DNA from: a virus
IMG/VR virus record: IMGVR_UViG_3300045988_033451
DNA: 60,779 nucleotides
Direction: 5' to 3' (one strand)
How positions within the stretch are numbered: the stretch's first letter is position 1; the number at the start of each line of letters is the position of its first letter. The position numbers were made by a program, and so were the translations under genes. Below, piece after piece: positions 1-41,415 of this stretch. The notes beneath the pieces were generated by a model. It saw only the letters and a list, made by a program, of their open reading frames with translations, made no database searches and had not been told where the DNA came from.

Positions 1-270
1 GCCGGAGCTTCCAATCTGTGCGTAATAGCCGGAGCTTCCAATCTGTGCGGAATCGCCGGAGCTTCCAATCTGTGCGTAATCGCCGGAGCTTCCAATCTGT
101 GCGTAATAGCCGGAGCTTCCAATCTGTGCGTAATAGCCGGAGCTTCCAATCTGTGCGTAATAGCCGGAGCTTCCAATCTGTGCGTAATAGCCGGAGCTTC
201 CAATCTGTGCGGAATCGCCGGAGCTTCCAATCTGTGCGTAATCGCCGGAGCTTCCAATCTGTGCGGAATT
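1..270 (-). repeat. 27-bp tandem repeat, 10 units (GCCGGAGCTTCCAATCTGTGCG + TAATA/GAATC/TAATC). Bases 1-265 duplicate 60515-60779.
   Basis: Unit-by-unit manual comparison. The spacer-variant order (TAATA, GAATC, TAATC, TAATAx4, GAATC, TAATC) is the same at both window ends. Confidence 0.9.
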
Positions 271-624
271 TTTTCCATTGTCGTAGTCCGTGCATTCTTC
301 GGCATTTTCAATTCTTGTTTTCTCGATTGTAAAGTCGACGCAAGCTTTAACAAATCCTTTAAGCCCTAACTTCGCTCCAATGTGTAATTTGTTCGTTGCA
401 CTCTTGTTTCCATCTTTCTTTACTTCTCCGACGGCTTCAACTTCGGCAAAATCGGAAATATCTCCATCCTCATTTACAAGCGGATAATAATCAAGAACAT
501 CATACGGATTTTCGCAGAAATGCATCATTCCATCTTCTTCGTATGTCGTGTTTTCCTTGTATTGTTTTCCGCTGCACGTCATATCTTTGTTAAATCCCTT
601 ATACCCTTTAATCGTTTCTCCCAT
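1..624 (-). CDS. N-terminal part of a repeat-containing phage protein whose gene crosses the window junction and continues 60514->60023. About 371 aa after removing the 265-bp overlap. The family resembles what I recall as DUF7666.
   Basis: ATG at 624-622. Translation is MGETIKGYKGFNKDMTCSGKQYKENTTYEEDGMMHFCENPYDVLDYYP..., running into IGSSGD(Y/S)AQ / IGSSGYYAQ nonapeptide repeats. The frame is continuous with the 60023..60229 ORF. Confidence 0.7.
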   Translation of the reverse strand, partial: MGETIKGYKGFNKDMTCSGKQYKENTTYEEDGMMHFCENPYDVLDYYPLVNEDGDISDFAEVEAVGEVKKDGNKSATNKLHIGAKLGLKGFVKACVDFTIEKTRIENAEECTDYDNGKNSAQIGSSGDYAQIGSSGDSAQIGSSGYYAQIGSSGYYAQIGSSGYYAQIGSSGYYAQIGSSGDYAQIGSSGDSAQIGSSGYYAQIGSSG

Positions 625-1393
625 TTTCAATCTCCCTTCCTAAAAATTTATTCACAAAATACAGCTGCCCTTTGCCAGTAATCTTAGTTGTGCGTGTAAT
701 TCTCACGCTTCCATCCGGGTTCTGCACGTTGCTTTCTTTCACTTCGAACAATCCTTGTTCGACATATCTCTGCATCGGCATGTTGCGTGATGAACCACTC
801 TTACACAGATATCCGTTGTTTCTCAACCATTCAAACAACCGCTTCTGCCCGATCTGATATCCATTCTGACAAATCAGCTTTGCCAAATCTCCGATAAGAA
901 TAGATGTCCGGCTTGTAGCCACCGCATCTGCAAATATCGATTTCGGTTTCATCTGTTCAATTCTTGCCTGTTTCTGCTCGATAATCTTGTCTCTTTCAGC
1001 GATCTTGTTATGTGCCACAAGCAACGCCTTTGAAAGCAATTCATCGTCAGATAGTGTTTCTTGCCCGGCTATATAACCTCCATTTTTACGAATTGAAGGA
1101 AGAACCTCTGATGTTACCCAATCTGTAAAACGTTCTGCGGATTCTTTCCTGCTTTGAAAGATTGTCTTGTAAAGGTTTGCTTCACTGATAAATGTCATTT
1201 TCTGCATTCCACCCTTTGTAGGGGTATCCGCAGTATGGATACCCTTTTCGGATAACCTCTGCTTAACATTTCCTACATTAGATATTTCTAATGCTTTGCA
1301 CACATCAGACAGGCAAAACATAGGTTCATTATTCGCTACTACTGTTCGAATTTCTCCAAATTCTTCGTTGTTAAAAATCTGTAATTCGTTCAT
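608..1393 (-). CDS. Phage antirepressor (BRO-N/KilAC-type)
   Basis: MNELQIFNNEEFGEIRTV... is a typical Bro-N start with an AGGAG RBS. The C-terminal half resembles the KilAC antirepressor domain. Confidence 0.8.
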   Translation of the reverse strand: MNELQIFNNEEFGEIRTVVANNEPMFCLSDVCKALEISNVGNVKQRLSEKGIHTADTPTKGGMQKMTFISEANLYKTIFQSRKESAERFTDWVTSEVLPSIRKNGGYIAGQETLSDDELLSKALLVAHNKIAERDKIIEQKQARIEQMKPKSIFADAVATSRTSILIGDLAKLICQNGYQIGQKRLFEWLRNNGYLCKSGSSRNMPMQRYVEQGLFEVKESNVQNPDGSVRITRTTKITGKGQLYFVNKFLGREIENGRND

Positions 1394-1446
1394 TTCTACT
1401 CCTTTCTGTGTTATACTCTCCTTATAAAACGAAGGGAGGTGTTGCC

Positions 1447-1611
1447 ATGGATATTGATTTAACAAAAGTTACAGAGGTAAGGCTTGTTCGAGTGGAAGAA
1501 ACCTGCAACAATTTGATAAAAGATGGTTGGAAACTAATAAATGTGTGCAGTTATTCGGACCCATTCGAAAAAGAATCCGGCACGGAATTTACCCTTGCTC
1601 GGTTTCAATAA
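1447..1611 (+). CDS. Small hypothetical protein (54 aa)
   Basis: GGGAGG RBS before MDIDLTKV. Its 3' end overlaps a minus-strand small ORF, so only one of the two may be real. Confidence 0.3.
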   Translation: MDIDLTKVTEVRLVRVEETCNNLIKDGWKLINVCSYSDPFEKESGTEFTLARFQ

Positions 1612-1735
1612 CCTTTGCCATAATGTAGATTGTTGGTGTGGTGGATGTGTTCATGTTGAGATATGTCCACCCATCATCAAGCAACTTGTTTGCTTCATCC
1701 ACGGTTACTTCTTTAATTGCTTCGATTTTTCTCAT
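1589..1735 (-). CDS. Small hypothetical protein (48 aa), translationally coupled to the Cro-like gene
   Basis: TAATG stop/start overlap with 1735..1965. Translation is MRKIEAIKEVTVDEANKLLDDGWTYLNM... The ORF is below the track's length cut-off. Confidence 0.35.
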   Translation of the reverse strand: MRKIEAIKEVTVDEANKLLDDGWTYLNMNTSTTPTIYIMAKVIETEQG

Positions 1736-1965
1736 TATTCCACCTCGCTTTCTAAATCTGAAAAATCTGTAACCGGCATAGACAAATAATTCGCAATTAA
1801 AATCATTGTGTCTAACTTTGGCTTGCTTTTATCATTTTTCCAATCTGATAAAAGCATTGGCGAAATATTAAGATCGGTTGCTACTCTGTAAGGGGTAATT
1901 CCTTTTTCAGATAATTTCTTTTCGAATTTGGAATATGATTGACCATATTTTCTGATTTTCGACAT
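1735..1965 (-). CDS. XRE-family HTH regulator (Cro-like, heads the leftward early operon)
   Basis: The HTH_3-like sequence LSEKGITPYRVATDLNISPMLLSDWKNDKSKPKLDTMILIANYL. It is divergent from a second XRE gene. Confidence 0.85.
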   Translation of the reverse strand: MSKIRKYGQSYSKFEKKLSEKGITPYRVATDLNISPMLLSDWKNDKSKPKLDTMILIANYLSMPVTDFSDLESEVE

Positions 1966-1976
1966 AAAACTTCTCC

Positions 1977-2137
1977 TTTCCTTAAAAATTCATTGCAATT
2001 ATTAAGGAAATCCGTTATAATGAAATCGTCGAATAACAATATAACAAAACAGCCTAGGTTTTAAGGATTTCCTTAATCTAGGTCTAGTATATTATGGTTT
2101 TCTTTAATTGTCAATAGAAAATTAAAGATTTCCTTAA
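1977..2137. promoter_or_regulatory. Immunity-switch operator region with four TTAAGGAAA/TTTCCTTAA sites
   Basis: TTTCCTTAA at 1977-1985, TTAAGGAAA at 2002-2010, the palindrome TTAAGGATTTCCTTAA at 2061-2076, and TTAAAGATTTCCTTAA at 2122-2137. Confidence 0.6.
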
Positions 2138-2158
2138 TATTTTGGAGGTGCGCGTAAA

Positions 2159-2467
2159 ATGTACGAAATATACCAAAAATTACTAGACATGAATGGAGTA
2201 AAAAGTGCAGATGTTGCAAGAGCTACAGGAATATCTAATATGACGTTTTCGGATTGGAAAAAAGGAAAGTCTACGCCTAAGATGGACAAAATTGAAAAAA
2301 TTGCAAAATATTTTGGCGTTACGACAGATTATATGATGGGAAAGAAGTCGGAAGTACCATCTTTGTCAATGGCGGACGAACATTTTGAACTAATCAAATT
2401 ATACTCTTCACTTTCAGAAGCAGATCAGAAAGCTATTATGCAAATAATGCGCAGCATGGCCAAATAA
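2159..2467 (+). CDS. XRE-family HTH regulator (CI-like repressor candidate)
   Basis: N-terminal HTH (VKSADVARATGISNMTFSDWKKGKSTPKMDKIEKIAKYFGV) plus a C-terminal extension. GGAGG RBS. Confidence 0.85.
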   Translation: MYEIYQKLLDMNGVKSADVARATGISNMTFSDWKKGKSTPKMDKIEKIAKYFGVTTDYMMGKKSEVPSLSMADEHFELIKLYSSLSEADQKAIMQIMRSMAK

Positions 2468-2483
2468 TAAAGGGGGATTTTAT

Positions 2484-2849
2484 ATGGATAATCAGCAATC
2501 TAATAACTATATGATATGCCCTAGGTGCAATCAGTATATTCCTTATGGATCTGCTTTCTGCAATTATTGCGGATTACAGTTTCAACCTCAAAGAAATGTT
2601 CAAATTGACACAAAACCAAAAAAGAAAACTGAAAGCCCATTGAGTGCATTATCTGGAATAATCAGTCTTGTTGGTTTTTTCACTTTTGGATTTTTGATTA
2701 TTGTAGGATTTATTATTTCTGTGATAGATTTGGCAATCGGACAATCTAAAAAATATGATAATCACATTCACGCTTGCTCTTGGTTTTCGGTTGTATTGTT
2801 TATAATTTTAATAATTTTAATGATTTTTGGCTTGTATAGAATAATATAA
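2484..2849 (+). CDS. Zinc-ribbon membrane protein in the repressor operon (superinfection-exclusion candidate)
   Basis: CPRCNQ...CNYCG zinc ribbon followed by two hydrophobic segments. Confidence 0.65.
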   Translation: MDNQQSNNYMICPRCNQYIPYGSAFCNYCGLQFQPQRNVQIDTKPKKKTESPLSALSGIISLVGFFTFGFLIIVGFIISVIDLAIGQSKKYDNHIHACSWFSVVLFIILIILMIFGLYRII

Positions 2850-2854
2850 AAATA

Positions 2855-2882
2855 AAGGCAGAGTTTTTGTTTTCTCTGCCTT
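2855..2882. terminator. Bidirectional hairpin terminator
   Basis: AAGGCAGAG / CTCTGCCTT stem with flanking A and T runs. Confidence 0.6.
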
Positions 2883-2888
2883 TTCTCT

Positions 2889-3110
2889 TTAGTTCCACTC
2901 TTTGATGGCTAACTCAATAAACCTAATCAAGTAGTCCATCAATTTCTCATTTGTAATGCGTGACATCATGTCACACAACTTCTGCCTCTTCTCTTCCACG
3001 TCGTAACCCCCTAACACATAATTTCGCAAATCCATATGCCTATTATAGAACATATGTTCTTTTGTGTCAATATTTAAGGGGAGAATGTGATAAATATAGG
3101 GCGATAGCAC
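2889..3110 (-). CDS. Hypothetical protein (start uncertain)
   Basis: ORF only. No convincing RBS at any of the three candidate ATGs. Confidence 0.3.
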   Translation of the reverse strand: MLSPYIYHILPLNIDTKEHMFYNRHMDLRNYVLGGYDVEEKRQKLCDMMSRITNEKLMDYLIRFIELAIKEWN

Positions 3111-3227
3111 TCAACTACCGCCCCGACCAGAATATTGAGGGGGATTCTGGTGTTCCTATTGAGAACATATTTATAATAGCACTATAACTTTGATATTTCT
3201 ATCGAAATCGTACGTCAAAGTTCGACA

Positions 3228-4154
3228 TTATTCCGGTTTGATTCTCACCGATTCAATTCTCTTCGAAAGTCCTACGGTTCCTTGCAAATTGCCGAATCCT
3301 TCCGCCCATCCGATTGTTTGAATATGACATTGTATCATTGCACCATGTATTTCGATAGCTTCAAGCCGTCTTGCTTCGCCTGTCGTTCCGATAATCGTGT
3401 CCTTTGTGATGATGCCATAATCTCTCCATCCAATGCCTTGAATATGCGCCTTAACTGAAATCTGTCTACCGGCTGGATCAATTTGGATTGCTTCAAGTCT
3501 CTTTGCTTGTCCTGTTACTCCGGCTTCTTCGCCCTCGTTCTTCCAATCTGACCATCCATATGTCTGTTGATGTACTCTATACTTCATAACTCCTTTTACC
3601 TCCTCAATATCATAACTAGGTCTGCCATATCCATAAATACTGTTTGAATTGATGTCGTAAGACTTCTTACATACGCCACCTCCATTCGCGATAACACCAC
3701 TTGCTCCGGACGTGTTTCCCTCGATTGTATAAACTTTGTATCTGTCAACTGCATAAACAAGTCCTGTGTGCTTCACGTTTGATGCACTTCCAAAGAATAT
3801 CTGATCGCCGACCTGTGGCGAAGTAAAGAATCTTCCGATCTGCTTAAAATAGTTAGCAGAATATCCGCATCCGGCTCCAAGCGACTTATCCGGTTGGTTC
3901 AACAACTTCTTAGCATTTTCAATTCCATACGCTTGAATAAAGCACCAATCAACGAACACGTCGCACCATGCATATCCGTTTTTCTTTCCGTTGTAGAAGT
4001 TTGGATATTTGGTGTCAATATCGTTCGCATATTTGGTGTAGTTGTTCGTTCCAGCATTTGCGGTCTTATCGTACAACTGCGCGTTCGTTTTCTTTTCGAG
4101 ATATCCAACTTCATTCATTGCTACCGCAATTACTTTGCTTGCATATAATTCCAT
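3228..4154 (-). CDS. Endolysin with an N-terminal CHAP-like amidase/peptidase domain and three ChW repeats
   Basis: The YAWCDVFV...HTGLVY region is CHAP-like. Three repeats of the (H)xQxxGW...G..G...RLEAI.I type follow. AGGAGG RBS. Confidence 0.85.
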   Translation of the reverse strand: MELYASKVIAVAMNEVGYLEKKTNAQLYDKTANAGTNNYTKYANDIDTKYPNFYNGKKNGYAWCDVFVDWCFIQAYGIENAKKLLNQPDKSLGAGCGYSANYFKQIGRFFTSPQVGDQIFFGSASNVKHTGLVYAVDRYKVYTIEGNTSGASGVIANGGGVCKKSYDINSNSIYGYGRPSYDIEEVKGVMKYRVHQQTYGWSDWKNEGEEAGVTGQAKRLEAIQIDPAGRQISVKAHIQGIGWRDYGIITKDTIIGTTGEARRLEAIEIHGAMIQCHIQTIGWAEGFGNLQGTVGLSKRIESVRIKPE

Positions 4155-4159
4155 ATGCG

Positions 4160-4211
4160 CACCTCCTAAAATAAAAACATCAAAACAAGACCTACATATT
4201 CCATTAGGTCT
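4160..4211 (-). terminator. Rho-independent terminator/attenuator between the tail-fibre region and the endolysin
   Basis: AGACCTA...TAGGTCT hairpin (4188-4211) followed on the minus strand by TGTTTTGATGTTTTTATTTT. Confidence 0.5.
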
Positions 4212-4308
4212 AAAAATTATATAAAGCCATTAGGCGATATATCGTTATGCTACTTTTCTATGTTCGATACAAGCACCTTGTAAAATCCTTCTAAAAAGTT
4301 TTTTAGGA

Positions 4309-4641
4309 ATGATTATACCACAGATGTCAAGACCCGGTCTAAATAAACTAAACTCGAATATCGGAAATATAAAACAATATAAAGATTATACAATATCAAC
4401 TGAATTAACAATTTCAAATGGTTTTTCAGTTCGGCAAATTGTTGGTTCAGGAGATTGGAGTTCACTTAAACAAACACCAGGAATAAATACAGTAACAAGC
4501 ATATGGGTAAGCGGTGGTTATGCGGATCAGTGGCAAATTACAGCATCATTATATGGTGACAATAGTTTGTGGATTCAATCATATTCTAAGTATAGCGGAA
4601 ATCTAAAAAACAATATCTTGATTCATCTTGTTTATTATTAA
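4309..4641 (+). other. Silent alternative tail-fibre C-terminal cassette, tail-to-tail with the expressed tail-fibre 3' end
   Basis: No usable RBS. GLNKLNSNIGNIKQY aligns with tail-fibre GALSTLNSNIDVVKHY. A shared 15-bp inverted repeat lies in the same codon phase in both copies. Confidence 0.55.
4347..4361. repeat. Inverted repeat, left copy (ACTAAACTCGAATAT)
   Basis: Exact reverse complement of 4981-4995. About 34/45 identity when the flanks are included. Confidence 0.8.
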
Positions 4642-7013
4642 TTGATATAATATGTACCAAATAGCTTAATAAATGATCCAGTTGTTATACTTCCGCTATA
4701 TGTTGGTGCTAAATATCCATTTCCAGATGGAGATATGTAACAAATTCCAATATTACCATCAGAACTTATCAATGTACCACAGTACGTACTATCTTTAGTC
4801 TTATTTTGAAGATTTGCTGGAATTTGTACTAATTTTGCCCAATCGTGAATTGTTGCAACAACTGTTGCGACAACTTGAAAATCAACTCGTTTATCTTGAC
4901 TATGTAAAATAAACGAGCAGTCTCTAACATCGGACAATAAATCTGTGTTAATAGAACCAACATAATGTTTTACAACATCTATATTCGAGTTTAGTGTACT
5001 TAGCGCACCTGTGACGGTACCATCTCCAAGCGAAGAAATATCCGTTGTTCCAATCTTCGATAAAAGCCATCTTACGTTTTTGAAGATAGTTGAAACTTTG
5101 CTAAAAATCGAAGCATGTGTCTCTCCACTTTTTAATAGTGCTGGCGCCGTAGAATCGCCTGTTTTTGAATCGTTTGATGTAAATTTTACTGTATTCTGGT
5201 AACTGTCGCTCCTAACATTCATAAGATTAACAGTCATTGCAGAACTTCCATCGTATTCTATAGCTTCTGTAATAATCTCATCTCTGAAATACAAATCATT
5301 GTATTCGTTAATAGGAGATGTAATTGTCAGTTTGTTCGATACTTTAGCTGATGTACTAGCACTTCCTGCACTTGTAGCATATTTGACACTTTTATTTGCA
5401 TCGGCGGTGTTATCAACATTCCCAAGTCCAACATTTGCTTTAGTTATATTGACATTCCCACGTCTAAAAGTTGTTTCATTTGCTCCCTTAACTCCTGTTA
5501 CCGGGCTTCCAGCTAAGACATCCCACTTTCCGGCTTCTGTCTTGTAAACATTGCTTCCTGCCGGTTCTGTGATTCCTGCACCCTCAACAAAATCATAAGT
5601 TGTCACGAACTCATCGGAAATATTATACATATCACCGGCACTTACAGAACTAACTGCCGGAAGATTTGCAAATGTGACAGTTCCCATCGGGCGCAATGCT
5701 CCGCTGAATGATTCAGAGATTGCTTTTGCCTGTTCGTAATACTTTTTTGCATTTGCTTCTGACGTGGCGGCGTTGGTTGCACTTGTGGATGCCGCTGATG
5801 CTTTGGATGTGGCTGTGGATGCTCCGCTTGCGGCGTTTGTTTCCGAAGTTTTTGCATTTTTTGCACTTGTAGCAGATGCGGTCTCGCTTGCTTTTGCGTT
5901 AGATGCACTTGTTGATGCCGCCGTTGCGGATGTACTCGCTGAATTAGCGAATGCTTTAGCCTCTGTGGCTCTATTAACAGCGTCAGATGCACTAGAATTA
6001 GCCGCAGATGCAGATGATTCCGCCGCCATTGCGTAAGATGATGCATCCTTTGCTTTTTGCGTGGCTGTTGTTGCAGATGCACTTGCTGATTCCGCACTTT
6101 CAGAAGCATTGCTTGCAGATTCGGATGCAGACGAAGCACTACCACTTGCAGATGTCGCACTTTTAGACGCTTCACTCGCTTTAGTTGATGCCGTAGATGC
6201 ACTTGTGGCGGCAGATGATGCACTCTTGCTTGCGTTGCTCTCCGACGTTGCAGATTTGGTTGCAGATGCACTTGCAGATGATGCACTTACCGATGCTTCA
6301 CTTGCCTTAGTGCTTGCCATGCTTGAAGAATCAGCAGATGCAATCGCACTATCACTCGCTTGTTCACTGTAATACTTCGAGTTGTCAGTATCTTCGCCAT
6401 CTCGAACACTTGCACCGCCGATAGCGTATGACTGTGACAGTTTTGCGTTATTGTATGCGGAATTGCTACTTGTCGTCGCCGAATTCGCCATGTTTGTTGC
6501 TTTAGCCACTTCGGTTTTGATTTCTGCTAAGTAGTCAGTCTTTAGGTGCCTATCTTCGATTGAACCATCTGCAATGTGTGCTTTAATATGACCGTTAGGA
6601 AGCGCATTAAAAATTATTGTATCCGAATCATCAAACTCGTATTGAGTAATAAGTGCAGACATATCAACATATTGTTTATTCCCGTCTGGCAATTCCAAAA
6701 CAAGTCTTTGATATGCATAGTCATACTCAAAGTTTACGGCAATTTTGTTTAAATTCGTATTGTACTGAGACACTTGACCGCCGTATCTTACAACTGTTAG
6801 AAATCCTGTATCAAGATTAATAGAAACGCTAGATACAAGAGATGGCAACACACTTGAATCTGCTTTTAGTGTGTCCAATTGTACAATCCTATCGTCCAAC
6901 GCGTCAATTCCTGATTCTATGTGGTTCATATCCGATGCGTTGAGCGGTGTGTCTGTTGATGGTCTGTTTTTCCAAAATAATCGCTCAAACGCTTTTTTCC
7001 AACCTTGTGACAT
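4638..7013 (-). CDS. Tail fibre protein (791 aa) with a long Ser/Ala-rich central region
   Basis: N-terminus is WKNRPSTDTPLNASDMNHIESGIDALDDRI, typical of Firmicute prophage fibres. It has about 240 aa of SAS/ATS low complexity and lies downstream of the Tal-like gene. Confidence 0.85.
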   Translation of the reverse strand: MSQGWKKAFERLFWKNRPSTDTPLNASDMNHIESGIDALDDRIVQLDTLKADSSVLPSLVSSVSINLDTGFLTVVRYGGQVSQYNTNLNKIAVNFEYDYAYQRLVLELPDGNKQYVDMSALITQYEFDDSDTIIFNALPNGHIKAHIADGSIEDRHLKTDYLAEIKTEVAKATNMANSATTSSNSAYNNAKLSQSYAIGGASVRDGEDTDNSKYYSEQASDSAIASADSSSMASTKASEASVSASSASASATKSATSESNASKSASSAATSASTASTKASEASKSATSASGSASSASESASNASESAESASASATTATQKAKDASSYAMAAESSASAANSSASDAVNRATEAKAFANSASTSATAASTSASNAKASETASATSAKNAKTSETNAASGASTATSKASAASTSATNAATSEANAKKYYEQAKAISESFSGALRPMGTVTFANLPAVSSVSAGDMYNISDEFVTTYDFVEGAGITEPAGSNVYKTEAGKWDVLAGSPVTGVKGANETTFRRGNVNITKANVGLGNVDNTADANKSVKYATSAGSASTSAKVSNKLTITSPINEYNDLYFRDEIITEAIEYDGSSAMTVNLMNVRSDSYQNTVKFTSNDSKTGDSTAPALLKSGETHASIFSKVSTIFKNVRWLLSKIGTTDISSLGDGTVTGALSTLNSNIDVVKHYVGSINTDLLSDVRDCSFILHSQDKRVDFQVVATVVATIHDWAKLVQIPANLQNKTKDSTYCGTLISSDGNIGICYISPSGNGYLAPTYSGSITTGSFIKLFGTYYIN
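4981..4995. repeat. Inverted repeat, right copy (ATATTCGAGTTTAGT), inside the tail-fibre gene
   Basis: Exact reverse complement of 4347-4361. Encodes LNSNI in the tail fibre. Confidence 0.8.
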
Positions 7014-7015
7014 TG

Positions 7016-9151
7016 CTATCTACCTCCAATCTGCTTCTCTAATTCTTTTATTCTCTCGTTCTGCGATTGCACCGTTGCTACAAGGTCAGCGATCAGTTCT
7101 TCATACCGAAGTGCCTTACCGCCATTTTCTCCTGTGTCAATATTTGCATCGCAGTACACTCCCCAATCACTATGCATGGAATCGTGAATCTCCTGTGCTA
7201 TAAATCCATGATGCAAGCGATCAGATGTGCCGTCTTTATACTTGTACTCAACTGGATTCAAGGCATAAATAAAGTCACTAGATTTTTTTGTATCTAGTGA
7301 CTGAATATTTGTCTTGACATCTTTATCGGAGCCAATAACCGGTGAAGATCCCAAATATGCTGTCCCACTTGTAAAAAATCCGGCAACTTCAACTTTGGCA
7401 TAATCTCCGGTGGCTGGGTATCCATCTTCATATACGCCCATCCCTGTCGGTGTGATTATCGTGTGTCTTAATGTCGCTCCGAGAATAGATATCAACTCTT
7501 GCATAATTAAATAACCGACATCATCCTCATATCCTTCTGCTGACAATCTCATTTCTGAATATTTTTGCCCGTTGTAATAAAACTCACTCTTGAACGTTTT
7601 TGCATTGATATCGCCTTCAATGTCTGCGCCCTTGCAAGTCATTTTTCCTTCTTTGGTGACGCTAAAATTGTCAGAAGTTATCGCAATGCTCTTACCTGTA
7701 AGATTGATTGTTCCACCGGACAAAAGATTGATAACATCGCTTGCAGATAGTTTTATATTATCTGCATCAACCTTAAATTCTGTTCCACTTCCTGTATCTC
7801 CAATAAGTGATACTTGAACAATTTTTCCTGTTGCAGAATCCACACGCAAAACAATTTGTTGTTCAGTTTGTTCAATTCTTGTAGACAACTCACTCTCTGC
7901 GTCTGTCGCACGTTTAACTTCCGATTCCAAACCTTTTTCTGTGACTTGTACGGATGTCTTAACTTTTTCGGTTGTTTTATTAAGGCGTTGAATCTGTGCG
8001 GTTACTCCATTCATATCGTTTTCAAGCATTTCCTTGCCTTTACAAATAAAGGAATCGCGAAGTGCCTTAACGCCTGTTAAATCCCTCTGAAAAACGTATG
8101 CTTCAAAGCCATAGCCGTTGACTTCTCCACTGATAAAATCGCCACACTCAACATGCGGTTGACCTTTTATTTTCGATGAATTGATCGGTCTGTAAGATAT
8201 AGACGAAATCTTACTCAGCAACGCATTTGCAAGTGCTGTAATCGTTTCGTGTGTCTGCCCCATGATTACGAAGTTATCTTGCACGTAATACGGATTTTGA
8301 TTGTACTCTGTGACGACTTGTGCGCCCTCTGAATCCACAATTATTACGCCATCAATATTAGACGTGAAGAAATCTTCAACCAACGGATGCTCGTACATAA
8401 GCGAAGTCGGAATATTGAACGAATTTTCGCTGTTTCCACTTCCTGCAGATGGGTATAAGTCATTCGCCGGGTATAAATCATCGGCTGGCAACAGCATAGA
8501 AGATTCAAGAGACAAATAATCAAACTTGCCATATCTATCCATCCGGCCAAACACACCGCTGATTTCGCATATCTGTTTCATCAGAGAAAGCCCGTTGATT
8601 CCGCTTGAAGAATCCAACTCTTTTGTAAGCACGATATTATCTGCAATCAGCGTTGTTTCATTCTGTTCCACACCGACATACTCACAAAGGCTATCTCTAA
8701 AATTCTTAACACTTATAGGTAATGTAAGGTTGTCATACCAATCCTTGACATCCACATCGAAATACCGCATCTTATCGTATGAAGTAAGTTTCTTATAGTC
8801 TTTTCCGGCATATTTCTCTATCGTTTCCACGTAGAACACACCCAACGGAATCTCCGTTTTGTTCGTGATAAGTACCGGCTCAATCTCATATCCCTTAATT
8901 CCGCTGTTTAGATTGAATACTGTCAATTCAAAGCTGGATGCATTGCAACCGCCAAATTTTAATTGTTCTTCTTCACAGATAGATTCATGCAACGTCATTT
9001 GTTCAGAAAGCACGTCTGAACCTTTGATTGTCGGAAACGCATTATCCTTGAATCTCACTTCTAATTCAATCGGTGTGCTATCTTCGATATACAGTTTTTT
9101 AATTGCTTTTGATATCTTAATCATACTGTTTTCACTCCATAAGAAATCCAT
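7016..9151 (-). CDS. Tail-associated (Tal-like) structural protein with a C-terminal S74 intramolecular-chaperone domain
   Basis: The C-terminus (...YALNPVEYKYKDGTSDRLHHGFIAQEI...RYEELIADLVATVQSQNERIKELE) matches the S74 autoproteolytic chaperone pattern. Confidence 0.8.
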   Translation of the reverse strand: MDFLWSENSMIKISKAIKKLYIEDSTPIELEVRFKDNAFPTIKGSDVLSEQMTLHESICEEEQLKFGGCNASSFELTVFNLNSGIKGYEIEPVLITNKTEIPLGVFYVETIEKYAGKDYKKLTSYDKMRYFDVDVKDWYDNLTLPISVKNFRDSLCEYVGVEQNETTLIADNIVLTKELDSSSGINGLSLMKQICEISGVFGRMDRYGKFDYLSLESSMLLPADDLYPANDLYPSAGSGNSENSFNIPTSLMYEHPLVEDFFTSNIDGVIIVDSEGAQVVTEYNQNPYYVQDNFVIMGQTHETITALANALLSKISSISYRPINSSKIKGQPHVECGDFISGEVNGYGFEAYVFQRDLTGVKALRDSFICKGKEMLENDMNGVTAQIQRLNKTTEKVKTSVQVTEKGLESEVKRATDAESELSTRIEQTEQQIVLRVDSATGKIVQVSLIGDTGSGTEFKVDADNIKLSASDVINLLSGGTINLTGKSIAITSDNFSVTKEGKMTCKGADIEGDINAKTFKSEFYYNGQKYSEMRLSAEGYEDDVGYLIMQELISILGATLRHTIITPTGMGVYEDGYPATGDYAKVEVAGFFTSGTAYLGSSPVIGSDKDVKTNIQSLDTKKSSDFIYALNPVEYKYKDGTSDRLHHGFIAQEIHDSMHSDWGVYCDANIDTGENGGKALRYEELIADLVATVQSQNERIKELEKQIGGR

Positions 9152-9540
9152 GCCATTCTTGTTGATGTGTATTGAATTTTTGTTGCATCCGCAAAGTACA
9201 TTGTCGGTTCAAAGTCAGCCATATACATATCGCTTGTCACATACTTATCCAATTCCGGCACATATACTTCAACGCTTGCCCTCTTCTCAACAGCGTTCTT
9301 GTAATTCGATTGAATATTTGCAAAAATGCTCGACATCTGTGTGTTATCAAGCATATTCCTCGTTTCAAATTCAACCTTGGGTGCCGTGTTGGATAATGCC
9401 GTTCGATGCAAGATTCCATCGACATCACGCGTTGAATCCAAATCTTGACCGTAGTTTGTTGCCTTGTAGCTCTCCGCCTTTATCATCGAAAGCGGAAATA
9501 TGTAATTGCCAATCTTAATTAAATAGCCTTTATATGCCAT
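9121..9540 (-). CDS. Distal tail protein-like
   Basis: Lies between the tape measure and Tal genes. GAGG RBS before MAYKGYLIKIGNY. Confidence 0.55.
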   Translation of the reverse strand: MAYKGYLIKIGNYIFPLSMIKAESYKATNYGQDLDSTRDVDGILHRTALSNTAPKVEFETRNMLDNTQMSSIFANIQSNYKNAVEKRASVEVYVPELDKYVTSDMYMADFEPTMYFADATKIQYTSTRMAWISYGVKTV

Positions 9541-9597
9541 ATAAAAACCTCGCATAAAAAGGGCAGACACGCTTATTTGCCTACCCTATAAAAATTC

Positions 9598-12500
9598 TTA
9601 ATATAACAATGGATTCGTACCTGTTCGGTTATACGCTTGCCGGTTCGACCGCTTTACGCTCTCAAAAATATCATTTGACGATATTCCTGTATCTTTCGCA
9701 AGCAACTGTCTAAGCAATTCGTTCTGTTCGCGCAATAGCCGGTTCTGATCTGCCTGTGACATCGACATTCCATCTACGATGCCACTTGCAATGTCTGTTG
9801 ACATCCGACCTGTGTCAATAACTGTCGATGTGCTTGTTGCCACATCTGTGTTGATTGATGATGCAATATACGCTGACATATCAGCTAAATCTTGCAATGG
9901 GTCTGTAAACTGCAAGGATGTGTTGAATGCAGATGTCAAATCTGTAGCCATTCCGCTTGCATCACTTAACAACTTAGGCATGGCACTTTCCATACCCAAA
10001 CCGATGCCGGGTGGCAAGAATTGACCGATTTCTTTATTCCATAATCGAGACGGAGAATGAATACCAAACGCACGTTTTAATGCGGATGTCAATCCTCTTG
10101 CAAGTGAAACTATGCCTCCAATAAGTCCATATTGTCCTCGACTATTCCACTTGTCAGACAATCCAATTCTAAGTCCATCTACAAGATTCGAGCCGGCTAC
10201 CCCCCAAGGACTTTTTTCATCTTCTACTTTTTTCTTTGCTTTCCATAAATTTGAACCGGTGTCAGATATAACTCCGCCCCATTGATTATTTGCTCCACCG
10301 CGAAGTCCGGCTAAAGCACCGACAAATGCGTTAGTCACGTTCTTACCGCCGCTTGATGAATCCGCTTTCATCTTGGCAAATTTCTGTGCCATATCGGATG
10401 CCATACCATTAAGAGTTGTGCCAGAACTGTTCTTCATTCCTGTTAAAGCATTAATCACAGACAACGACATACCATTAGCTGAGCTTGTAGCATTTTTAGT
10501 CATAACAGAAAAATTGTTTGTAGAATTTCCTGCCATTCCTTGAATACTTGTTACAACCGACCCAGCCATTCCTTGTACGCTTGATGTCGTATTCTGTGAC
10601 ATATTTTTGACACTGTTAGATGCGCTGTTGTTCATGTTATTGTAATCGGAAACTACACTATTTTTAGTCTGCTTAACAAGCGACGTTATTTGATTTTTCC
10701 CATTTGCAACAGAAGCTCCAACATTGGCTAATCCGTTTTTAGTCTTTCCATCGACATCTTTCCCCGTTTGTTCCACATATCCAGGAATCAATTTTAAAAA
10801 TCCGCTGAATTTTTCAGTCATTTTCCATGAAGCATTTTCGATTGCTTCACTAAGCACACCAAAAGAAGATCTTCCTGTTTTTCCTATGCTTTTTAATGGT
10901 TTTTCACCCATTGCAACGGATTTCCATACTTTTTGTACCTGCGGTGGCAGATCTGATATTTTTTGCTCCATAATTTTTATGTTGCTTATTTGTTCTGCTA
11001 CCTGTTCTCCTATGCTAGTATGTCCTTCTTTGATTGTTTCTACCAATCCTTTGATAGCTTTGAATGGCGTATCGTATTCTCTATAATACGATGCCAATTC
11101 GCTGTCTCCCTGTGATTCTGCAAGAGATGCAAGACCTGTATTTACTTGTTTTCCGATCAATTCTCCAAGTCCAAGACCTGCAGCAATGGCAATCCCTATT
11201 TGTCCCAAAGAAGCGGTTGCGGCGCTTGTCTTAAAGTAAGCCGCCATCCCACTAAGCAAACCTCCTCCTGCCGCATTTCCTACGGAAGAAGATGCAAAAT
11301 GAGTAACTATTGCATTTGTGATTGCGTTTTTTGCAGCCGATGTTAGTTGCACAGCCGTAATCACAACGCCAAGAGAAGCAATCGTAAGGCTAATAGCCTT
11401 TGCAATGTTTACATTCCCCTCTTTGTCTACAAGCCACTTTGCAACTACATCTGCAAACTTACTGAACGGTGTATTTTCGTACAGCCAATTTCCAACCTTA
11501 AATCCAATTACCGCTGTTGTAATTGAGATAGAAATTGCTTTGCTAAGAGGAATGGTTTTATCGCCAATTCCTGTTGATATTTCCTTTGCAAGCAAATTCT
11601 TTAACACGCCTGTGGCAATCTCTTTACCGCCATGCATCCATTTAAAAGCACCGATGGCAATTACAACCGTATCAAGGTCTAATTCGGTAAGGAAATCAAC
11701 ACCACCTTTTAATACATCCGACCATGATATATTTTTTAAGGCAGTAAATATTGTATCTTCGATTCCATCTACCCAACCATTGATAGCCTTTGCAAACTTC
11801 TTAAAATCAAAGTTTTGGAAAAATCCGTTTATTCCATACGCAATGGACAATCCAAGGTCGTCAAAATCAAAGTTATCTGTAAAACTAAGTGATGCAGTAA
11901 TTGCAGTGTTTAACGAATTTGCAATAGTTTTTCCTGTTGCGTAGAAAAGCTGTGGAGATATAAGACCTGTTAAAAAGTCTGCCAATCCTTTTCCGAAATT
12001 CTCCGCACCCTTGTAAGCACTATCCCAATCAATGCTTTCAAGTTCTTTTGTCAGATTTATTCCGATGTATTCTCCCAAACCTCTAAGGTTAGAAATGGCA
12101 CTCTTGTAAAGTCCGTCTGTCTCTGTGACATTAAACTTCATTCCACCGCTTGAACCACCGGAAGATGCACCGCCACCACCACCAGAGCCACCATTACCGC
12201 CGGAACTATCGTTAGGCGTATTCAACACATTCAGTTCATCAAAGCCTTGTAACTGTTGCTTTAACTTCTTAGCATTATCAGCCGCTTTGCCTGTTCCAGA
12301 CGCAAGATCGTCTGCGCCTGTTGCCGCATTCTCAAAATCATCCGCAAGTGCGCCACGCTGGATTTCTAATTTCCAACCGAATATAGCACCCAATGCGTTG
12401 ACAATGCTTTCCGAAAAATTGATAACTGCATCCAAGCCTTTGTTAAGTGCTTGAAGCAAAGGCTTTAACATGTTGATGCCAGCATTGCCCCATATGGCAC

Positions 12501-26857: not shown

Positions 26858-26980
26858 TTTATATTACCTCCTGTGAAAGATAACAGCACTCCACTTGTGC
26901 TTAGAACCTGTGAACAACAAATCAGCAAACAGACGGTCACAGTTCCGCTTTTCGCTTCGTCAAGCTAGTTTGCTGTAAAG

Positions 26981-27063
26981 TGTAGCAGGTGGATTCGAAC
27001 CACCATCCGGCTTTCATCGTTGTTTTCTGTGCGCACGCCACTCTACCATTGAGATATGCTACA
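26981..27063 (-). ncRNA. tRNA-like element A, with good acceptor, D and T arms but no anticodon stem
   Basis: TGTAGCA/TGCTACA acceptor, GGTGG-TTCGAAT-CCACC T arm, and a 34-nt middle with only 3-4 bp of pairing. Confidence 0.4.
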
Positions 27064-27339
27064 ATGTGCGGTTTCCGATGCAGACATTGTAACCGGTGTG
27101 GTATGCCATGCATCGGAATTTTTTTATTTCAGCAGGGATTACTGCAACGCCTGCTTATTCGGGACTACCCGACCGCTTGATGCGGCGTGGATTTGCACCA
27201 CACATATTCTTCTATAGCAGAACAGACACCCTCCGGGTCCTGCTTACCTATTTGCATACGCATCAACTGAAAAGCAAGATGGTTTTACGGATGCAAAGAT
27301 AACCAACAACTAAGCTCCGAGGTTCATTGCTTTTTCAAA

Positions 27340-27430
27340 CGCCGACAATAGGACTTGAACCTATACGCCGCATAAGCGACTACTGACAGTTTAGCAAACT
27401 GTTCCCTTACCAAATTAGGGTTATATCGGC
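27340..27430 (-). tRNA. tRNA-Ser (GCU), class II
   Basis: GCCGATA/TGTCGGC acceptor, ACAGT-TTGCTAA-ACTGT anticodon arm, 21-nt variable arm and ATAGG-TTCAAGT-CCTAT T arm. No CCA is encoded. Confidence 0.75.
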
Positions 27431-27496
27431 AAAACACCGCCTGTTACGGTATGCACATCCGAAAATGTGCATGGTTGGATTCCACAACATTGGGAG

Positions 27497-27523
27497 AAAC
27501 AAAAAATGTCCCTTTGCAAGGGA
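27497..27523 (-). terminator. Rho-independent terminator after tRNA-like B
   Basis: TCCCTTGCAAAGGGA hairpin followed by CATTTTTTGTTT on the minus strand. Confidence 0.5.
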
Positions 27524-27597
27524 ATCGACACGGAAGATTCGAACTCCACCTATATCGCAATATGCGAATTATGCTATCCAATTACACTACATGTCGA
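27524..27597 (-). ncRNA. tRNA-like element B, cloverleaf-compatible but with a 5-nt (ATATT) or non-canonical 7-nt (CAUAUUG) anticodon loop
   Basis: TCGACAT/GTGTCGA acceptor, TGGAG-TTCGAAT-CTTCC T arm and TCGC-ATATT-GCGA anticodon region. If it is a tRNA, the anticodon would be UAU with A33. Confidence 0.4.
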
Positions 27598-27789
27598 AGC
27601 GACTTTTTTCGCCGCGGGTTAGTCGAAATTGTGTGGCGCACGCGTGAACACCGCGCAAAATCCAAGACTGTTCGTTAGTCAATTATCGCGAATCAGTGAC
27701 ATAGAATCAGACAAGATATTACACTCACAACCCGATAAAAAATAGTTTGTTGCGTCAAAACGTATTCGTGGGTATGCAGGTTGTGAGAT

Positions 27790-27873
27790 ACGAAGCACCC
27801 GGAATCGAACCGGAATTTACGGGAAAACGTGGGGTGTGTAAAACCGTATGATCTGCCATTGATCTATGCTTCG
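27790..27873 (-). ncRNA. tRNA-like element C, with perfect acceptor, D and T arms and a 5-bp anticodon stem closing a 21-nt loop
   Basis: CGAAGCA/TGCTTCG acceptor, GATC-AATGGCA-GATC D arm, TACGG[TTTTACACACCCCACGTTTTC]CCGTA anticodon region and TCCGG-TTCGATT-CCGGG T arm. Confidence 0.4.
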
Positions 27874-28060
27874 TGTGCGCATCCTCTTGGGGAGACAGAC
27901 GCGCAAAAGGAGAAATGTGTGTTCCCCATGGAATAAAGGGGTTTATACGCGCCGGCATTCAACCGGCAAAACCCACCGAGCCTTGTGACGGCTCTTAACA
28001 GCTTTCCGCTAGTGGGTTACGAAAGGAGGATCCTAAAATGAAAAACATTAAGAATCCAAG

Positions 28061-28132
28061 CTGCCCTAGTTGGATTCGAACCAACAACTGCAGGAATCAA
28101 AGTCCTGTGCCTTACCATTTGGCGATAGGGCA
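28061..28132 (-). tRNA. tRNA-Gln (UUG)
   Basis: TGCCCTA/TAGGGCA acceptor, CAGGA-CTTTGAT-TCCTG anticodon arm and GTTGG-TTCGAAT-CCAAC T arm. Close to the Bacillus tRNA-Gln as I recall it. Confidence 0.85.
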
Positions 28133-28140
28133 TAAAACGC

Positions 28141-28734
28141 TTATGCAGCGTGTTCTGACAAAATTCTGTCTAAAGTCGGTCTTGATACACCAATGTTCTT
28201 CGCAAATGCAGACTTGGTGATCTTACCGGACCGGTAAAGAATCAAATTGCTGTCAAGCAATTCGCTATCTACAGTTTTCTTTGTACCGCCCTTGTATTTG
28301 CCTTCTTTCTTTGCAATAGCGATTCCTTCTGCCTGCCGCTCTCTGATATGTTCTCTTTCAAGATTCGCAACGTAGGAAAGAATCTGCAATACCAGATCGG
28401 CGATAAATGTGTCTGTCAAGTCTCCGGTTCTTCCAATAGTCGTGTCAAGTAGTGGCATATCGAGGACCTTAATGCCTGCTTTAATAGTCTTAGTAATTCT
28501 ACGCCATTCCTCCATGATCTCGTCATAGTTTCTGCCGAGCCGGTCGATAGAAAGGATAATTAGAACATCGTCGCTTGTTAAGTTGGCAATCATCTTTTGA
28601 TAATCAGGTCGTTCAAAATCCTTGCCTGATAACTTGTCTGTGTAAATCTTTTCGCATCCAGCATTTTTAAGTGCTTCTAACTGTCTTGCAAGGTTCTGTT
28701 CCTTGGTTGACACTCTCGCATAGCCTATAATCAT
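28141..28734 (-). CDS. Small serine recombinase (resolvase/invertase family, 197 aa)
   Basis: MIIGYARVSTKEQNLARQ... catalytic-Ser motif, SIDRLGRN, and a C-terminal HTH (SAFAKNIGVSRPTLDRIL). Confidence 0.85.
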   Translation of the reverse strand: MIIGYARVSTKEQNLARQLEALKNAGCEKIYTDKLSGKDFERPDYQKMIANLTSDDVLIILSIDRLGRNYDEIMEEWRRITKTIKAGIKVLDMPLLDTTIGRTGDLTDTFIADLVLQILSYVANLEREHIRERQAEGIAIAKKEGKYKGGTKKTVDSELLDSNLILYRSGKITKSAFAKNIGVSRPTLDRILSEHAA

Positions 28735-28782
28735 AATCACACACCCCTTATCTTTAATTGATATGGGTATTATATCACAAAA

Positions 28783-28847
28783 TGCAATGCTTTGCAATGC
28801 TTTGCAGTGCATTTTATTGCTTTGCAGTGCTTTGCATTGCAATATTT
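28783..28847. promoter_or_regulatory. Six 10-bp-phased TGCTTTGCA(N) repeats overlapping the divergent promoters
   Basis: Units begin at 28788, 28798, 28808, 28818, 28828 and 28838. A TTGCAA-17-TATATT promoter faces the RHH gene. Confidence 0.5.
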
Positions 28848-33597: not shown

Positions 33598-33852
33598 ATG
33601 ATAATAGGAATGTTAAACAACGGAACAACATGTACATACGATTTACCATCAGAGGTAAAGACAGCGGAAGAATTTAAAAGCCTTATATATGGCTACAATG
33701 ACGGAAGAATGGCAGAAAGCCAGCGTGAAGAACTTTACAACCAGCCTAAATTATTGGGCTTGAATGGTCCTATGTGGGGCGGCTGGGGAACTCTTAAAAG
33801 CACAGGCGAAACGGTCGCAATAATTCGATATGAAAAACCTTTAAATTTTTAG
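33598..33852 (+). CDS. Small ORF P2 (84 aa)
   Basis: GGAGG RBS. Confidence 0.55.
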   Translation: MIIGMLNNGTTCTYDLPSEVKTAEEFKSLIYGYNDGRMAESQREELYNQPKLLGLNGPMWGGWGTLKSTGETVAIIRYEKPLNF

Positions 33853-33913
33853 CCGAAACGCTCCGATCTTGGAGCGTCCACCGCGGGACGGTCTCCCGGT
33901 GCTGATGATGGCA
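33851..33913 (+). ncRNA. Hammerhead ribozyme motif HH1 (type II topology)
   Basis: GAA at 33855-57. Stem III is ACGCTCC/GGAGCGT (A15.1-U16.1) and C17 is at 33878. Stem I hairpin spans 33879-33901 and CUGAUGA spans 33902-08. Stem II is short (GGC/GCC with one extra U). Confidence 0.55.
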
Positions 33914-33932
33914 GACCAGAAAGGAAAAAAAT

Positions 33933-39967: not shown

Positions 39968-41215
39968 TCAGGATTTAAAAGTGTTGCCCGTGTTACCTTT
40001 TCGGCATAAAGCGTTCACAACAAGTTCTTTTACTTCATCTCTTCCGTGATTGTTGAAGTAATAATATTTTTTCGTTGTCTCTATGTCCTCATGCCCCATT
40101 TGATTCTCAATCACGCTATCAGGAACGTTTGCATCAATTAACTTCGTTGAATATGTTTTTCGTATTTTGTGAAGTGATCTCTGCTTAATTCCCAATTTGT
40201 TACATATCCGATACAGTTTTCTCGAAAACAAATATCCCTTGATGCGCTGTCCGTCTTTGAAGAATAGATAATCATTAAACGGATTCAACGCTCGAATACG
40301 CTTAATAATCATTTTCGCTTCCGGTGTCAAATACACAGTTCTGTACCCGGCTTTTGTCTTAGGTGCATCCCTTACATCAAAAACATAGTTTCCATCTTCA
40401 TCACGATATCTAATTTCCGTCTTAGTGATTGATATAGAATCTTCTTTTACATCTTTCCACATGAGGGCGGATAATTCTCCCGATCGTAGCCCGGTTTGGA
40501 ATGTAAGCAAAATTCCAAGTCCAAGTAAAGAATCTCGCTCCGCATTTATGCACCATTCAATCTTCGCTTCTTCGGAATCCGTAAAAACTTGTTCTTCGCT
40601 TGAAGTGTAGGTTTTCTTGAAAGATTTATCAGAAATCTCCAAATCTCCAATAAATGATGTAATGCTTATCGAAGTAAGTCCTCGCTTTTTTCCACGCTTG
40701 AATATTCCGTTTATGAGCGTTCTAAGATTTCCCCACGCTTTTGATGTAAGCTGTTTCTCTTTGATCGTCGTCCGAATAAAATCTTCCAGATCATCTTCTG
40801 TGATATATCTGAATTTTATCTGCGCAATATGAGAATTTTTAATATATTTAATAAAATCTGTTTTGTATCTATCTGCTGTTTGCTTTTCTATTTCTCCGTA
40901 TTTAAGCTTTCTATCTAACCATTCATCAAATACGTCATCTATATAAGGCTCGTTTTCTTGTTCCTTATAAAACTGAACAATAGCATCATTCAATGCCTGT
41001 TCTGTTGTTCTCTTTATCAACCTCTTTCCTCTGCTATATTTTTCGTCTGGCAGATATGTATAAAACTTTCCGTCTTTACTCTGCCAGATGCTATAATTGT
41101 GATTTTCAATGTACCGATTTCTTTCGTTCATTTCAATCTTTTGTTGTATGTCGCTTACGTCGATAATACCATTTTCGATAGCGAAATTCAACAATTCTTT
41201 GTCGGAAAGTTCCAT
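39968..41215 (-). CDS. int: Tyrosine integrase
   Basis: AGGAGG RBS before MELSDKEL. The C-terminal catalytic region contains ...HKIRKTYSTKLIDANV...MGHEDIETTKKYYY. Confidence 0.85.
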   Translation of the reverse strand: MELSDKELLNFAIENGIIDVSDIQQKIEMNERNRYIENHNYSIWQSKDGKFYTYLPDEKYSRGKRLIKRTTEQALNDAIVQFYKEQENEPYIDDVFDEWLDRKLKYGEIEKQTADRYKTDFIKYIKNSHIAQIKFRYITEDDLEDFIRTTIKEKQLTSKAWGNLRTLINGIFKRGKKRGLTSISITSFIGDLEISDKSFKKTYTSSEEQVFTDSEEAKIEWCINAERDSLLGLGILLTFQTGLRSGELSALMWKDVKEDSISITKTEIRYRDEDGNYVFDVRDAPKTKAGYRTVYLTPEAKMIIKRIRALNPFNDYLFFKDGQRIKGYLFSRKLYRICNKLGIKQRSLHKIRKTYSTKLIDANVPDSVIENQMGHEDIETTKKYYYFNNHGRDEVKELVVNALCRKGNTGNTFKS

Positions 41216-41415
41216 GCAGACACCTCCTTCCATTTGCGTTTTATTTCCCTGACAGTTCTTTCAACTGTGCTTACAGATATGCTTAATTTGTACGAAACTT
41301 CCTTCTGTGTGCTTCCCCGGCACAACATTCTAAAAATCTGTTCTTCTTCGTCCGTAAAGTTTGCTTTAGTAAGAATCCCCTCAATTTCCGGCTTAGTAAG
41401 TCTACTAAACTTCAT
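41188..41415 (-). CDS. Small sigma70-r4/LuxR-type HTH protein
   Basis: LTKPEIEGIL...QIFRMLCRGSTQKEVSYKLSISVSTVERTVREIKRK. Confidence 0.55.
   Translation of the reverse strand: MKFSRLTKPEIEGILTKANFTDEEEQIFRMLCRGSTQKEVSYKLSISVSTVERTVREIKRKWKEVSAWNFPTKNC

Follow-up and report, generated by a model that had tools for sequence, protein, structure and literature searches.

The 60,779-nt IMG/VR virus record IMGVR_UViG_3300045988_033451 (hereafter the window, which refers to this whole stretch of DNA) carries a tail-fibre gene that meets a second open reading frame (ORF) of the opposite strand tail-to-tail within positions 4309–7013, and an inverted repeat connects the two. This locus raises the question of whether the phage can replace the tip of its tail fibre by inverting the DNA between the repeats and, if so, which enzyme would carry out the reaction. 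From the comparisons described below, we conclude that the region 4347–4995 is probably a two-site, recombinase-less (“orphan”) cassette from a family of tip-inversion systems, linked to an Xer-like recombinase, in Lachnospiraceae phages, and that it would flip only with an enzyme provided in trans.

Structure of the Tail-Fibre Locus

The tail-fibre ORF (4638..7013, minus strand) encodes 791 amino acids, and the opposite ORF (4309..4641, plus strand) encodes 110; they abut at the sequence TTAA (4638–4641), where their stop codons overlap. The 15-mer ACTAAACTCGAATAT, located at 4347–4361 on the plus strand, recurs as its exact reverse complement at 4981–4995 inside the fibre gene. Ungapped extension of the repeat gives arms of 42 nt each (4339–4380 and 4962–5003) that are 79% complementary, close to the 34 of 45 matching positions given in a preliminary description of this locus made from the sequence alone. 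Both copies encode L-N-S-N-I in the same phase, and because of this shared phase an inversion of 4362–4980 would place a 92-residue tip (GNIKQY...HLVYY) on the 678 constant residues of the fibre, in exchange for the present 113-residue tip (DVVKHY...GTYYIN).

The fibre gene is therefore described here in two parts. Its constant part (4981..7013, minus strand, 678 codons) ends with ...GDGTVTGALSTLNSNI and includes the proximal crossover site (4981..4995, minus strand), in which the 14-bp core shared by the family, CTAAACTCGAATAT, occupies 4981–4994. The expressed tip (4641..4980, minus strand, 113 codons) follows. Facing it, the distal crossover site (4347..4361, plus strand; family core at 4348–4361) precedes the silent alternative tip (4362..4641, plus strand, 92 codons and a stop), whose frame is open only from the core onward. 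The potentially invertible segment (4362..4980) is 619 bp long and filled wholly by the two tips, without a chaperone gene pair, and the genes neighbouring it encode the endolysin and the fibre, so that the earlier statement that neither a chaperone gene nor an adjacent invertase is present was correct. A constant N-terminal part, two promoterless tips arranged tail-to-tail and crossover sites lying in frame together form a tip-switching cassette with a Mu-G-like logic, and the inverted 15-mer, the silent tail-to-tail ORF and the shared L-N-S-N-I frame on which the preliminary description had based this idea are all present.

The plus-strand ORF was examined for signs of independent expression. 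The sequence AGGA directly abuts the ATG at 4309, which leaves no usable spacing for a ribosome-binding site (RBS), as had been claimed earlier, and the residues upstream of the core are unconserved in the sole other copy of this ORF that we found. For these two reasons it is regarded as a promoterless cassette rather than a gene. The two tips align with each other by BLASTP only across the 15-residue junction, and a Pfam scan of both tips and the fibre returned no family. AlphaFold2 models of the tips were too poor for a fold search, with a predicted local distance difference test (pLDDT) value of 48.5 for the silent tip and 41.4 for the fibre C-terminus, the latter from an 18-sequence alignment.

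With up to two mismatches allowed, ACTAAACTCGAATAT occurs twice in 60.8 kb, compared with 0.15 copies expected, and none of 100 shuffled sequences contained two. No further copy of the core with up to two mismatches was identified in the window, including the surroundings of the small serine recombinase gene discussed below, and matches with three mismatches were at chance level. The repeat appears to be more than a chance occurrence, and the decisive argument for this is a comparative one.

A Conserved Asymmetric Core at the Tip Junction

The last 253 residues of the fibre matched more than 120 proteins, the majority of them from assemblies of human-gut metagenomes. They have the sequence in common up to ...GDGTVTGALSTLNSN, the last ~90 residues before LNSN being a conserved stretch, and diverge completely right after LNSN, with at least eight unrelated tips found on near-identical N-termini. 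A genome scan places this fibre family in Lachnospiraceae, namely in metagenome-assembled genomes (MAGs) of Acetatifactor, Roseburia, Dorea, and Eubacterium and in one cultured Acetatifactor.

At the nucleotide level, the 14-bp core is located at the junction between constant and variable parts in dozens of related fibre genes and again before silent cassettes. Across 45 distinct site contexts, only the asymmetric 14-bp sequence (C/T)TAAACTCGAATA(T/A) is conserved, and no dyad-symmetric 26-bp site of the gix/hix type was found among them. The first base of the core, which is variable, is inherited together with the left flank, and its last base, likewise variable, together with the tip, which indicates that the exchange takes place inside the core. 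The site is an asymmetric one of the sfx/rix kind, and the earlier remark that the repeat looks unlike hix or gix holds across the family.

Another explanation of the repeat is that no site-specific recombination is involved, and that it represents a conserved LNSN coding motif within a leftover tip that arrived through homologous recombination or duplication. Indeed, the repeat codes for a conserved peptide, and tips have clearly been exchanged between unrelated phages. However, the nucleotide sequence of the core itself is conserved, synonymous positions included, and this also holds before silent cassettes that have an unrelated, non-coding flank upstream. The inversions described in the next section also bear on this explanation.

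Inversions Between Cores in Related Phages

Genomes carrying both orientations were identified among the relatives, which are referred to here by L-numbers. L002 is a prophage within a 186-kb contig, in which the fibre gene is followed by an opposite-strand tip, a gene for a 333-aa tyrosine recombinase and, farther on, a gene for a 427-aa integrase. Protein P0002, encoded at locus L005, carries as its expressed tip the one that is silent in L002, and the recombinase gene lies on the other strand in L005. BLAST comparison of the two loci showed 99.3–99.8% identity and two inversions, with the alignments overlapping exactly on the 13–14-bp core. L002 8938–9526 corresponds to L005 9525–8937 in inverted orientation and represents a two-tip segment, and L002 9514–10722 corresponds to L005 10721–9513, again inverted, and contains only the recombinase gene and no tip. 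Hybrid flanks at the L002 and L005 cores place the exchange within the core in these loci as well.

Six cores in alternating orientation (+ - + - + -) are present in L002, at 8937, 9513, 10709, 11371, 12438, and 13194, and L005 has the same pattern. Each of these cores leads in frame into an open tip of 67–160 codons, and the segments between the L002 cores carry tip pairs, the recombinase gene and an amidase endolysin gene. Four tips that are silent in L002 or L005 were found, at 99–100% identity, fused to a 99–100% identical constant region in other proteins, which means that the silent cassettes of these prophages do get expressed.

The six-site shufflon spans 8937–13207 in L002 and 8937–12974 in L005, in a Lachnospiraceae-type prophage. 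Fibres of L002-type prophages are ~400 aa long and do not have the long Ala/Ser/Thr-rich low-complexity stretch, with imperfect repeats in multiples of 3 nt, that occupies 5640–6340 (minus strand) of the window fibre gene.

The same core lies at the breakpoints of a second pair, L019 and L025, which are sister phages with the flanks of the window. They differ by an inversion of exactly the core-to-core segment, the segment being 94% and the flanks 93 and 97% identical. No recombinase gene was detected on L019 or L025, both of which are missing from the top 80 of the 182 IMG/VR loci that bear a recombinase gene (a ranking that extends to 36% identity). On the distal side, donor-type phages have only the 14-bp core in common with the L019/L025 flanks, and the inversion must therefore be site-specific. 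It is evident from this pair that a recombinase-less architecture like that of the window has flipped before.

Additional signs of inversion came from incomplete assemblies. Two contigs of one Acetatifactor MAG (CANQNT01), L088 and L089, share 6206 nt at 100% identity and part directly behind a core variant, a divergence best read as an assembly bubble at the junction. Moreover, the contig ends no more than 150 nt past the junction motif in 17 of 69 related loci, as is expected of an assembler faced with both orientations.

The claim of an invertible tip is accordingly upheld in one part: inversion at this core occurs in relatives (L002/L005, L019/L025, L088/L089, and the four expressed tips), and both orientations exist in nature there, whereas the window phage itself gave no sign of it and its own cassette was found in a single orientation. 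With regard to an origin of the repeat without site-specific recombination, near-identical genomes differ by inversions that break inside the core, one of the inverted segments holds a recombinase gene without any tip, and the 14 bp shared on the distal side would be too short for homologous recombination. We consider such an origin extremely improbable.

Recombinases Encoded Beside the Cassettes

The 333-aa protein encoded beside the cassettes in L002, L003, and L005 contains PF13495 and PF00589 and scores 205 bits against the XerA model; its Xer-like core begins at about residue 60. Among the genes listed for these three loci, within ~8 kb, none was noted as encoding a serine recombinase. 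A tyrosine recombinase is also encoded within a few kb of the fibre match in the more distant relatives L041, L042, L070, and L075. We infer that this Xer-like tyrosine recombinase catalyzes the inversion, rather than a serine invertase of the Gin/Cin/Pin type as the preliminary description had suggested. In total, 182 IMG/VR viral contigs encode relatives of the Xer-like recombinase, many of them at 36–40% identity in phages of 40–83 kb (L175–L254).

The enzyme proposed earlier is the product of 28141..28734 (minus strand, within the region 28141–28842), a serine recombinase of resolvase/invertase size with a C-terminal helix-turn-helix, encoded 23 kb from the cassette; no serine invertase gene is adjacent to the segment. 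If this enzyme acted at a distance, in a Gin/Cin- or Mpi-like manner, the window would have a self-contained switch. Its size and its helix-turn-helix would suit this role, it matches the Mpi master-invertase model weakly (49 bits, cutoff 272), and trans-acting invertases exist, Mpi being an example (cited in PMC6109161). However, 27 related IMG/VR contigs carry the gene, every one of them at 96–99% conservation (one match is partial, at a contig end), and among these carriers are phages that have their own tyrosine-recombinase gene as well as single-site phages, in which there is no segment to be inverted. Because it is conserved whatever the state of the cassette, the gene is not tied to the cassette, and the earlier proposal is not supported. 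It belongs to the core genes of the lineage, probably with a different function, and is unlikely to encode the invertase.

Other evidence points in the same direction. The same or near-identical cores recombine beside a tyrosine recombinase in L002, L003, and L005, the 14-bp core is asymmetric and differs from the dyad-symmetric 26-bp gix/hix type, and no flipped form of the window phage has been seen. A search for inverted repeats around the serine recombinase gene gave nothing convincing. A switch operated by this enzyme is, in our view, very improbable. Directly downstream of its gene, the region 26907–28132 (minus strand) is a gene-poor stretch with tRNA-Ser(gct), tRNA-Val(tac), tRNA-Gln(ttg), and an int-alpA RNA motif.

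A Closed Genome Without the Recombinase

The first 265 nt of the window are the same as its last 265 nt, and the window represents a complete, circularly permuted genome of ~60.5 kb. L119, an independent assembly of the window phage (99.9% identical), reads across the junction of the two ends, continuing without a break from position 13 to 60513. A tblastn search of the window found no homolog of the shufflon recombinase. A profile of seven recombinase homologs, searched against six-frame ORFs of at least 60 aa, retrieved only the 421-aa integrase (39968..41233), with 33 bits and 20% identity over 95 aa. A dedicated Xer-like recombinase is absent from the locus and from the whole closed genome. 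Since the genome encodes none, the segment of the window can flip only with a recombinase in trans, similar to the Rin recombinase discussed in the last section.

The 421-aa integrase was considered as a possible invertase and rejected. It is of the lambda-Int type, is 30% identical over its full length to the integrase of the L002 prophage, and has only generic catalytic-domain similarity to the shufflon recombinase.

Relatives of the Cassette and Loss of the Recombinase

The only other carrier of the window's tip pair that we found is L001, a 2.4-kb Logan contig. Window ~4279–4995, which comprises the cassette with its potentially invertible segment and ~70 bp of left flank, has a counterpart of ~99% identity in L001; to the right of it, identity in the constant region falls to ~85–90%, and the far-left flank is unrelated. 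The gene directly beyond the distal site in L001 encodes a recombinase homolog that is 55% identical to the 333-aa recombinase of L002. In the window, ~70 bp of the recombinase-gene leader are retained as a conserved outer flank of the distal site (4279–4346), with a flank motif that is also present in sister phages, and no recombinase gene follows. The position of the L001 recombinase gene is taken here by the endolysin upstream region (4155–4278) and the CHAP+ChW endolysin gene (3228..4154, minus strand), which lies at the cassette edge, outside the switch. Between the window and L001, the silent tip differs by two nonsynonymous changes and one synonymous change and the expressed tip by none and one, respectively, numbers that are too small to weigh or to test for selection.

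A promoter-like match extends from 4341 to 4312 on the minus strand (TAGACC, an 18-nt spacer and TG-TATAAT, 10/12; a consensus match only). It adjoins the distal site on its outer side and aims at the endolysin gene, and the same region precedes the recombinase gene in L001.

In a broader proposal, the cassette would be a host-range switch worked by the enzyme of a related prophage and would flip only in cells that harbour such a prophage. Two-tip segments bounded by the core may also move as units between unrelated Lachnospiraceae phages by recombinase-mediated cassette exchange, given the ~99% identical cassette in diverged flanks in the window and L001. We offer this proposal tentatively and regard it as doubtful. 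If true, the receptor specificity of a phage would depend on the prophage content of its previous host.

About 30 IMG/VR contigs (30–72 kb) share window 1–3232 and 6998–12000 at ~86–98% identity, and these sister phages show every intermediate state in the loss of the recombinase and the sites. The recombinase gene is present at the locus in L001, L002, L003, and L005. In L013 and L029, it is without its first ~70 codons (L013 8761–9615) and is cut where a 187-aa tip ends, and in the L014 group a shorter fragment, a 142-codon ORF (L014 8725–9153), remains between two sites. Two sites without a recombinase were identified in 11 loci, and a single site without a silent tip in ~10 loci. In L009, L011, and L027, the silent cassette has shrunk to 12 codons.

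Does the Segment of the Window Still Flip?

A number of observations weigh against a cassette that is still in use. The truncated or lost recombinase genes, the single sites and the 12-codon cassette would indicate repeated decay in the lineage. No flipped form of the window phage was found in the four long assemblies with its endolysin, one of which may be the window's own source: all encode the identical 791-aa fibre, including the expressed tip, and the two that were compared at the DNA level are 99.9–100% identical to the window. L001, which does bear a recombinase gene, is in the same orientation as the window. A search of 5.8 billion protein clusters never found the silent tip fused to a fibre, only as a silent ORF. 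An exact 35-mer consisting of the core and the start of the silent tip had no match in Joint Genome Institute (JGI) metagenome contigs or IMG/VR, and the silent tip had no match at the protein level in JGI metagenomes. Since the silent tip is absent from these collections, a flipped copy could not be sought there, and a flipped minority could go unseen because assemblies report the majority orientation only. A search of window 4200–5300 at the DNA level against 50,697 phage records gave no match. In the sampled populations, the segment behaves as effectively locked.

These points, namely the single orientation of every window-phage assembly and of L001, the silent tip that was never seen expressed and the sister phages at every stage of decay, together with the lack of a recombinase in the genome, speak for a fossil cassette, derived from a shufflon-bearing phage, in which no natural inversion is left and the silent tip and distal site are neutral, decaying remnants. 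Yet both 14-bp cores are perfect, and the frame of the silent tip is open over 97 codons in DNA of 62% A+T. Besides, inversion did take place in the segment of L019/L025, which has the flanks of the window and lies on contigs where no recombinase gene was detected, and relatives that bear a recombinase gene together with this core, or one nearly identical to it, are common in the window's phage lineage and host family. A fossil is thus possible but, in our assessment, rather unlikely. With both cores perfect and the silent tip intact, the DNA of the window appears to be a competent substrate for inversion.

For the orphan cassette with an enzyme in trans, which remains the reading we prefer, the following mechanism is proposed. 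An Xer-like tyrosine recombinase of ~333 aa, encoded beside or inside the invertible DNA, would recombine copies of the core. One of these copies is positioned in frame at the fibre's ...ALSTLNSN junction, and the others precede promoterless tips. Inversion between opposed cores would splice a different receptor-binding tip onto the constant fibre. In the case of the window, a relative that is co-resident in the cell or co-infects it would have to supply the enzyme. L002-type prophages and sister phages, whose core is the same or nearly so, could plausibly donate the recombinase: L013 and L029 carry a near-identical site beside the recombinase gene, and several MAGs hold two fibres of the window's fibre family. 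Although the L013-type recombinase is cut at its N-terminus, it may still be active, because the whole Xer-like core is kept. Action in trans therefore seems possible, and the tips presumably determine host range.

Lachnospiraceae are dominant gut commensals, and their phages are barely characterized. Many phages of this family may carry programmable receptor-binding tips, up to six per prophage, and the 14-bp site with its Xer-like recombinase could provide a handle on phage–host dynamics and on host-range engineering in Lachnospiraceae. Because assemblies tend to break at the site, single-orientation reference genomes would under-report the host-range repertoire. The main value of this locus lies in the Lachnospiraceae shufflon family that was reached through the window and in the orphan cassette itself, which, as a likely competent substrate bereft of its enzyme, represents a natural test case for trans-acting invertases between co-resident phages.

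Other Features of the Window

The protein encoded upstream of the fibre (7016–9151, minus strand) has a Peptidase_S74 domain (endosialidase intramolecular chaperone) at its C-terminus. On the plus strand, opposite to most genes, a type II hammerhead ribozyme was identified at 33851–33920, with 62 bits compared with a gathering score of 37. The ends of the window (1–270 and 60257–60779) lie in a tandem array with a 27-bp period inside a DUF7666 gene.

Comparison with Known Inversion Systems

Similar to the Gin/G system of Mu, Cin/C of P1, Pin of e14, and Min of p15B, the locus of the window would join an alternative fibre C-terminus in frame by inversion at sites that lie in coding sequence. 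In those systems, a serine invertase is encoded beside the segment and acts on dyad-symmetric sites of ~26 bp, with an enhancer and Fis, and the segment contains a tail-fibre assembly gene (U/U'); their hosts are Proteobacteria. Different from them, the window has no adjacent serine invertase, no dyad-symmetric sites and no assembly gene in the segment. The Min system of p15B, with six sites, forms many isomers (as summarized in PMC6109161).

The shufflon of R64/IncI plasmids is similar in being a tyrosine-recombinase system with short asymmetric sites and tail-to-tail alternative C-termini. There, Rci acts on sfx sites, of which only one arm and the spacer are conserved, to exchange the tips of pilV; the asymmetry of sfx favours inversion over deletion. 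Multiple segments are present, each with tail-to-tail alternative C-termini for the adhesin. The R64 system differs in serving a plasmid pilus adhesin instead of a phage fibre, and its site sequence is unrelated to the core described here.

Among the cultured phages in the collection searched, only Roseburia phage Jekyll (LR596902.1, VUE37341.1) matched the fibre C-terminus, with 48% identity over query residues 53–140. Its tail protein is akin to the constant region and ties the fibre family to Lachnospiraceae hosts. In Jekyll, however, the similarity falls in the interior of a longer, fixed protein, with no silent cassette and no nearby recombinase. No described shufflon of a Lachnospiraceae phage was found in the literature that we searched.

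The closest published analogue is the Rin shufflon of Bifidobacterium prophages, in which a constant gene, Rc, is combined with Rv cassettes and rix sites of 11 bp (Mavrich et al., 2018, PMC6109161) and was later reported in Eggerthella lenta prophages (PMC8778435). Both families have a receptor-binding protein (RBP) or fibre gene whose N-terminal part is constant and whose C-terminal part is stored as several variable cassettes without promoters, with one short asymmetric crossover site before each cassette. Both also have an adjacent tyrosine recombinase that is Xer-like, not lambda-Int-like, and separate from the prophage integrase, an enzyme that the window itself does not have, and in both the inversions were seen by comparing prophages. 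They differ in their hosts, Actinobacteria in the case of Rin and Bacillota/Lachnospiraceae here, and in the fibre family. The rix site TTCCCTAACCC (11 bp) and the core CTAAACTCGAATAT (14 bp) are different sequences, and the two systems are likened by functional class, both recombinases being Xer-like. In addition, the sites in the window's relatives alternate in orientation, and the invertible segments also hold recombinase and endolysin genes.

Programmed inversions in tail-fibre genes are a recognized class (PMC9881135), and the novelty ascribed to this locus in the preliminary description was overestimated: RBP shufflons of prophages that depend on a tyrosine invertase were described in 2018, as was a two-tip inverted locus without a flanking recombinase, for which an invertase acting in trans was proposed (PMC6109161). 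The latter is the situation of the window, which is a defective member of an already known class, the tyrosine-recombinase fibre shufflons.

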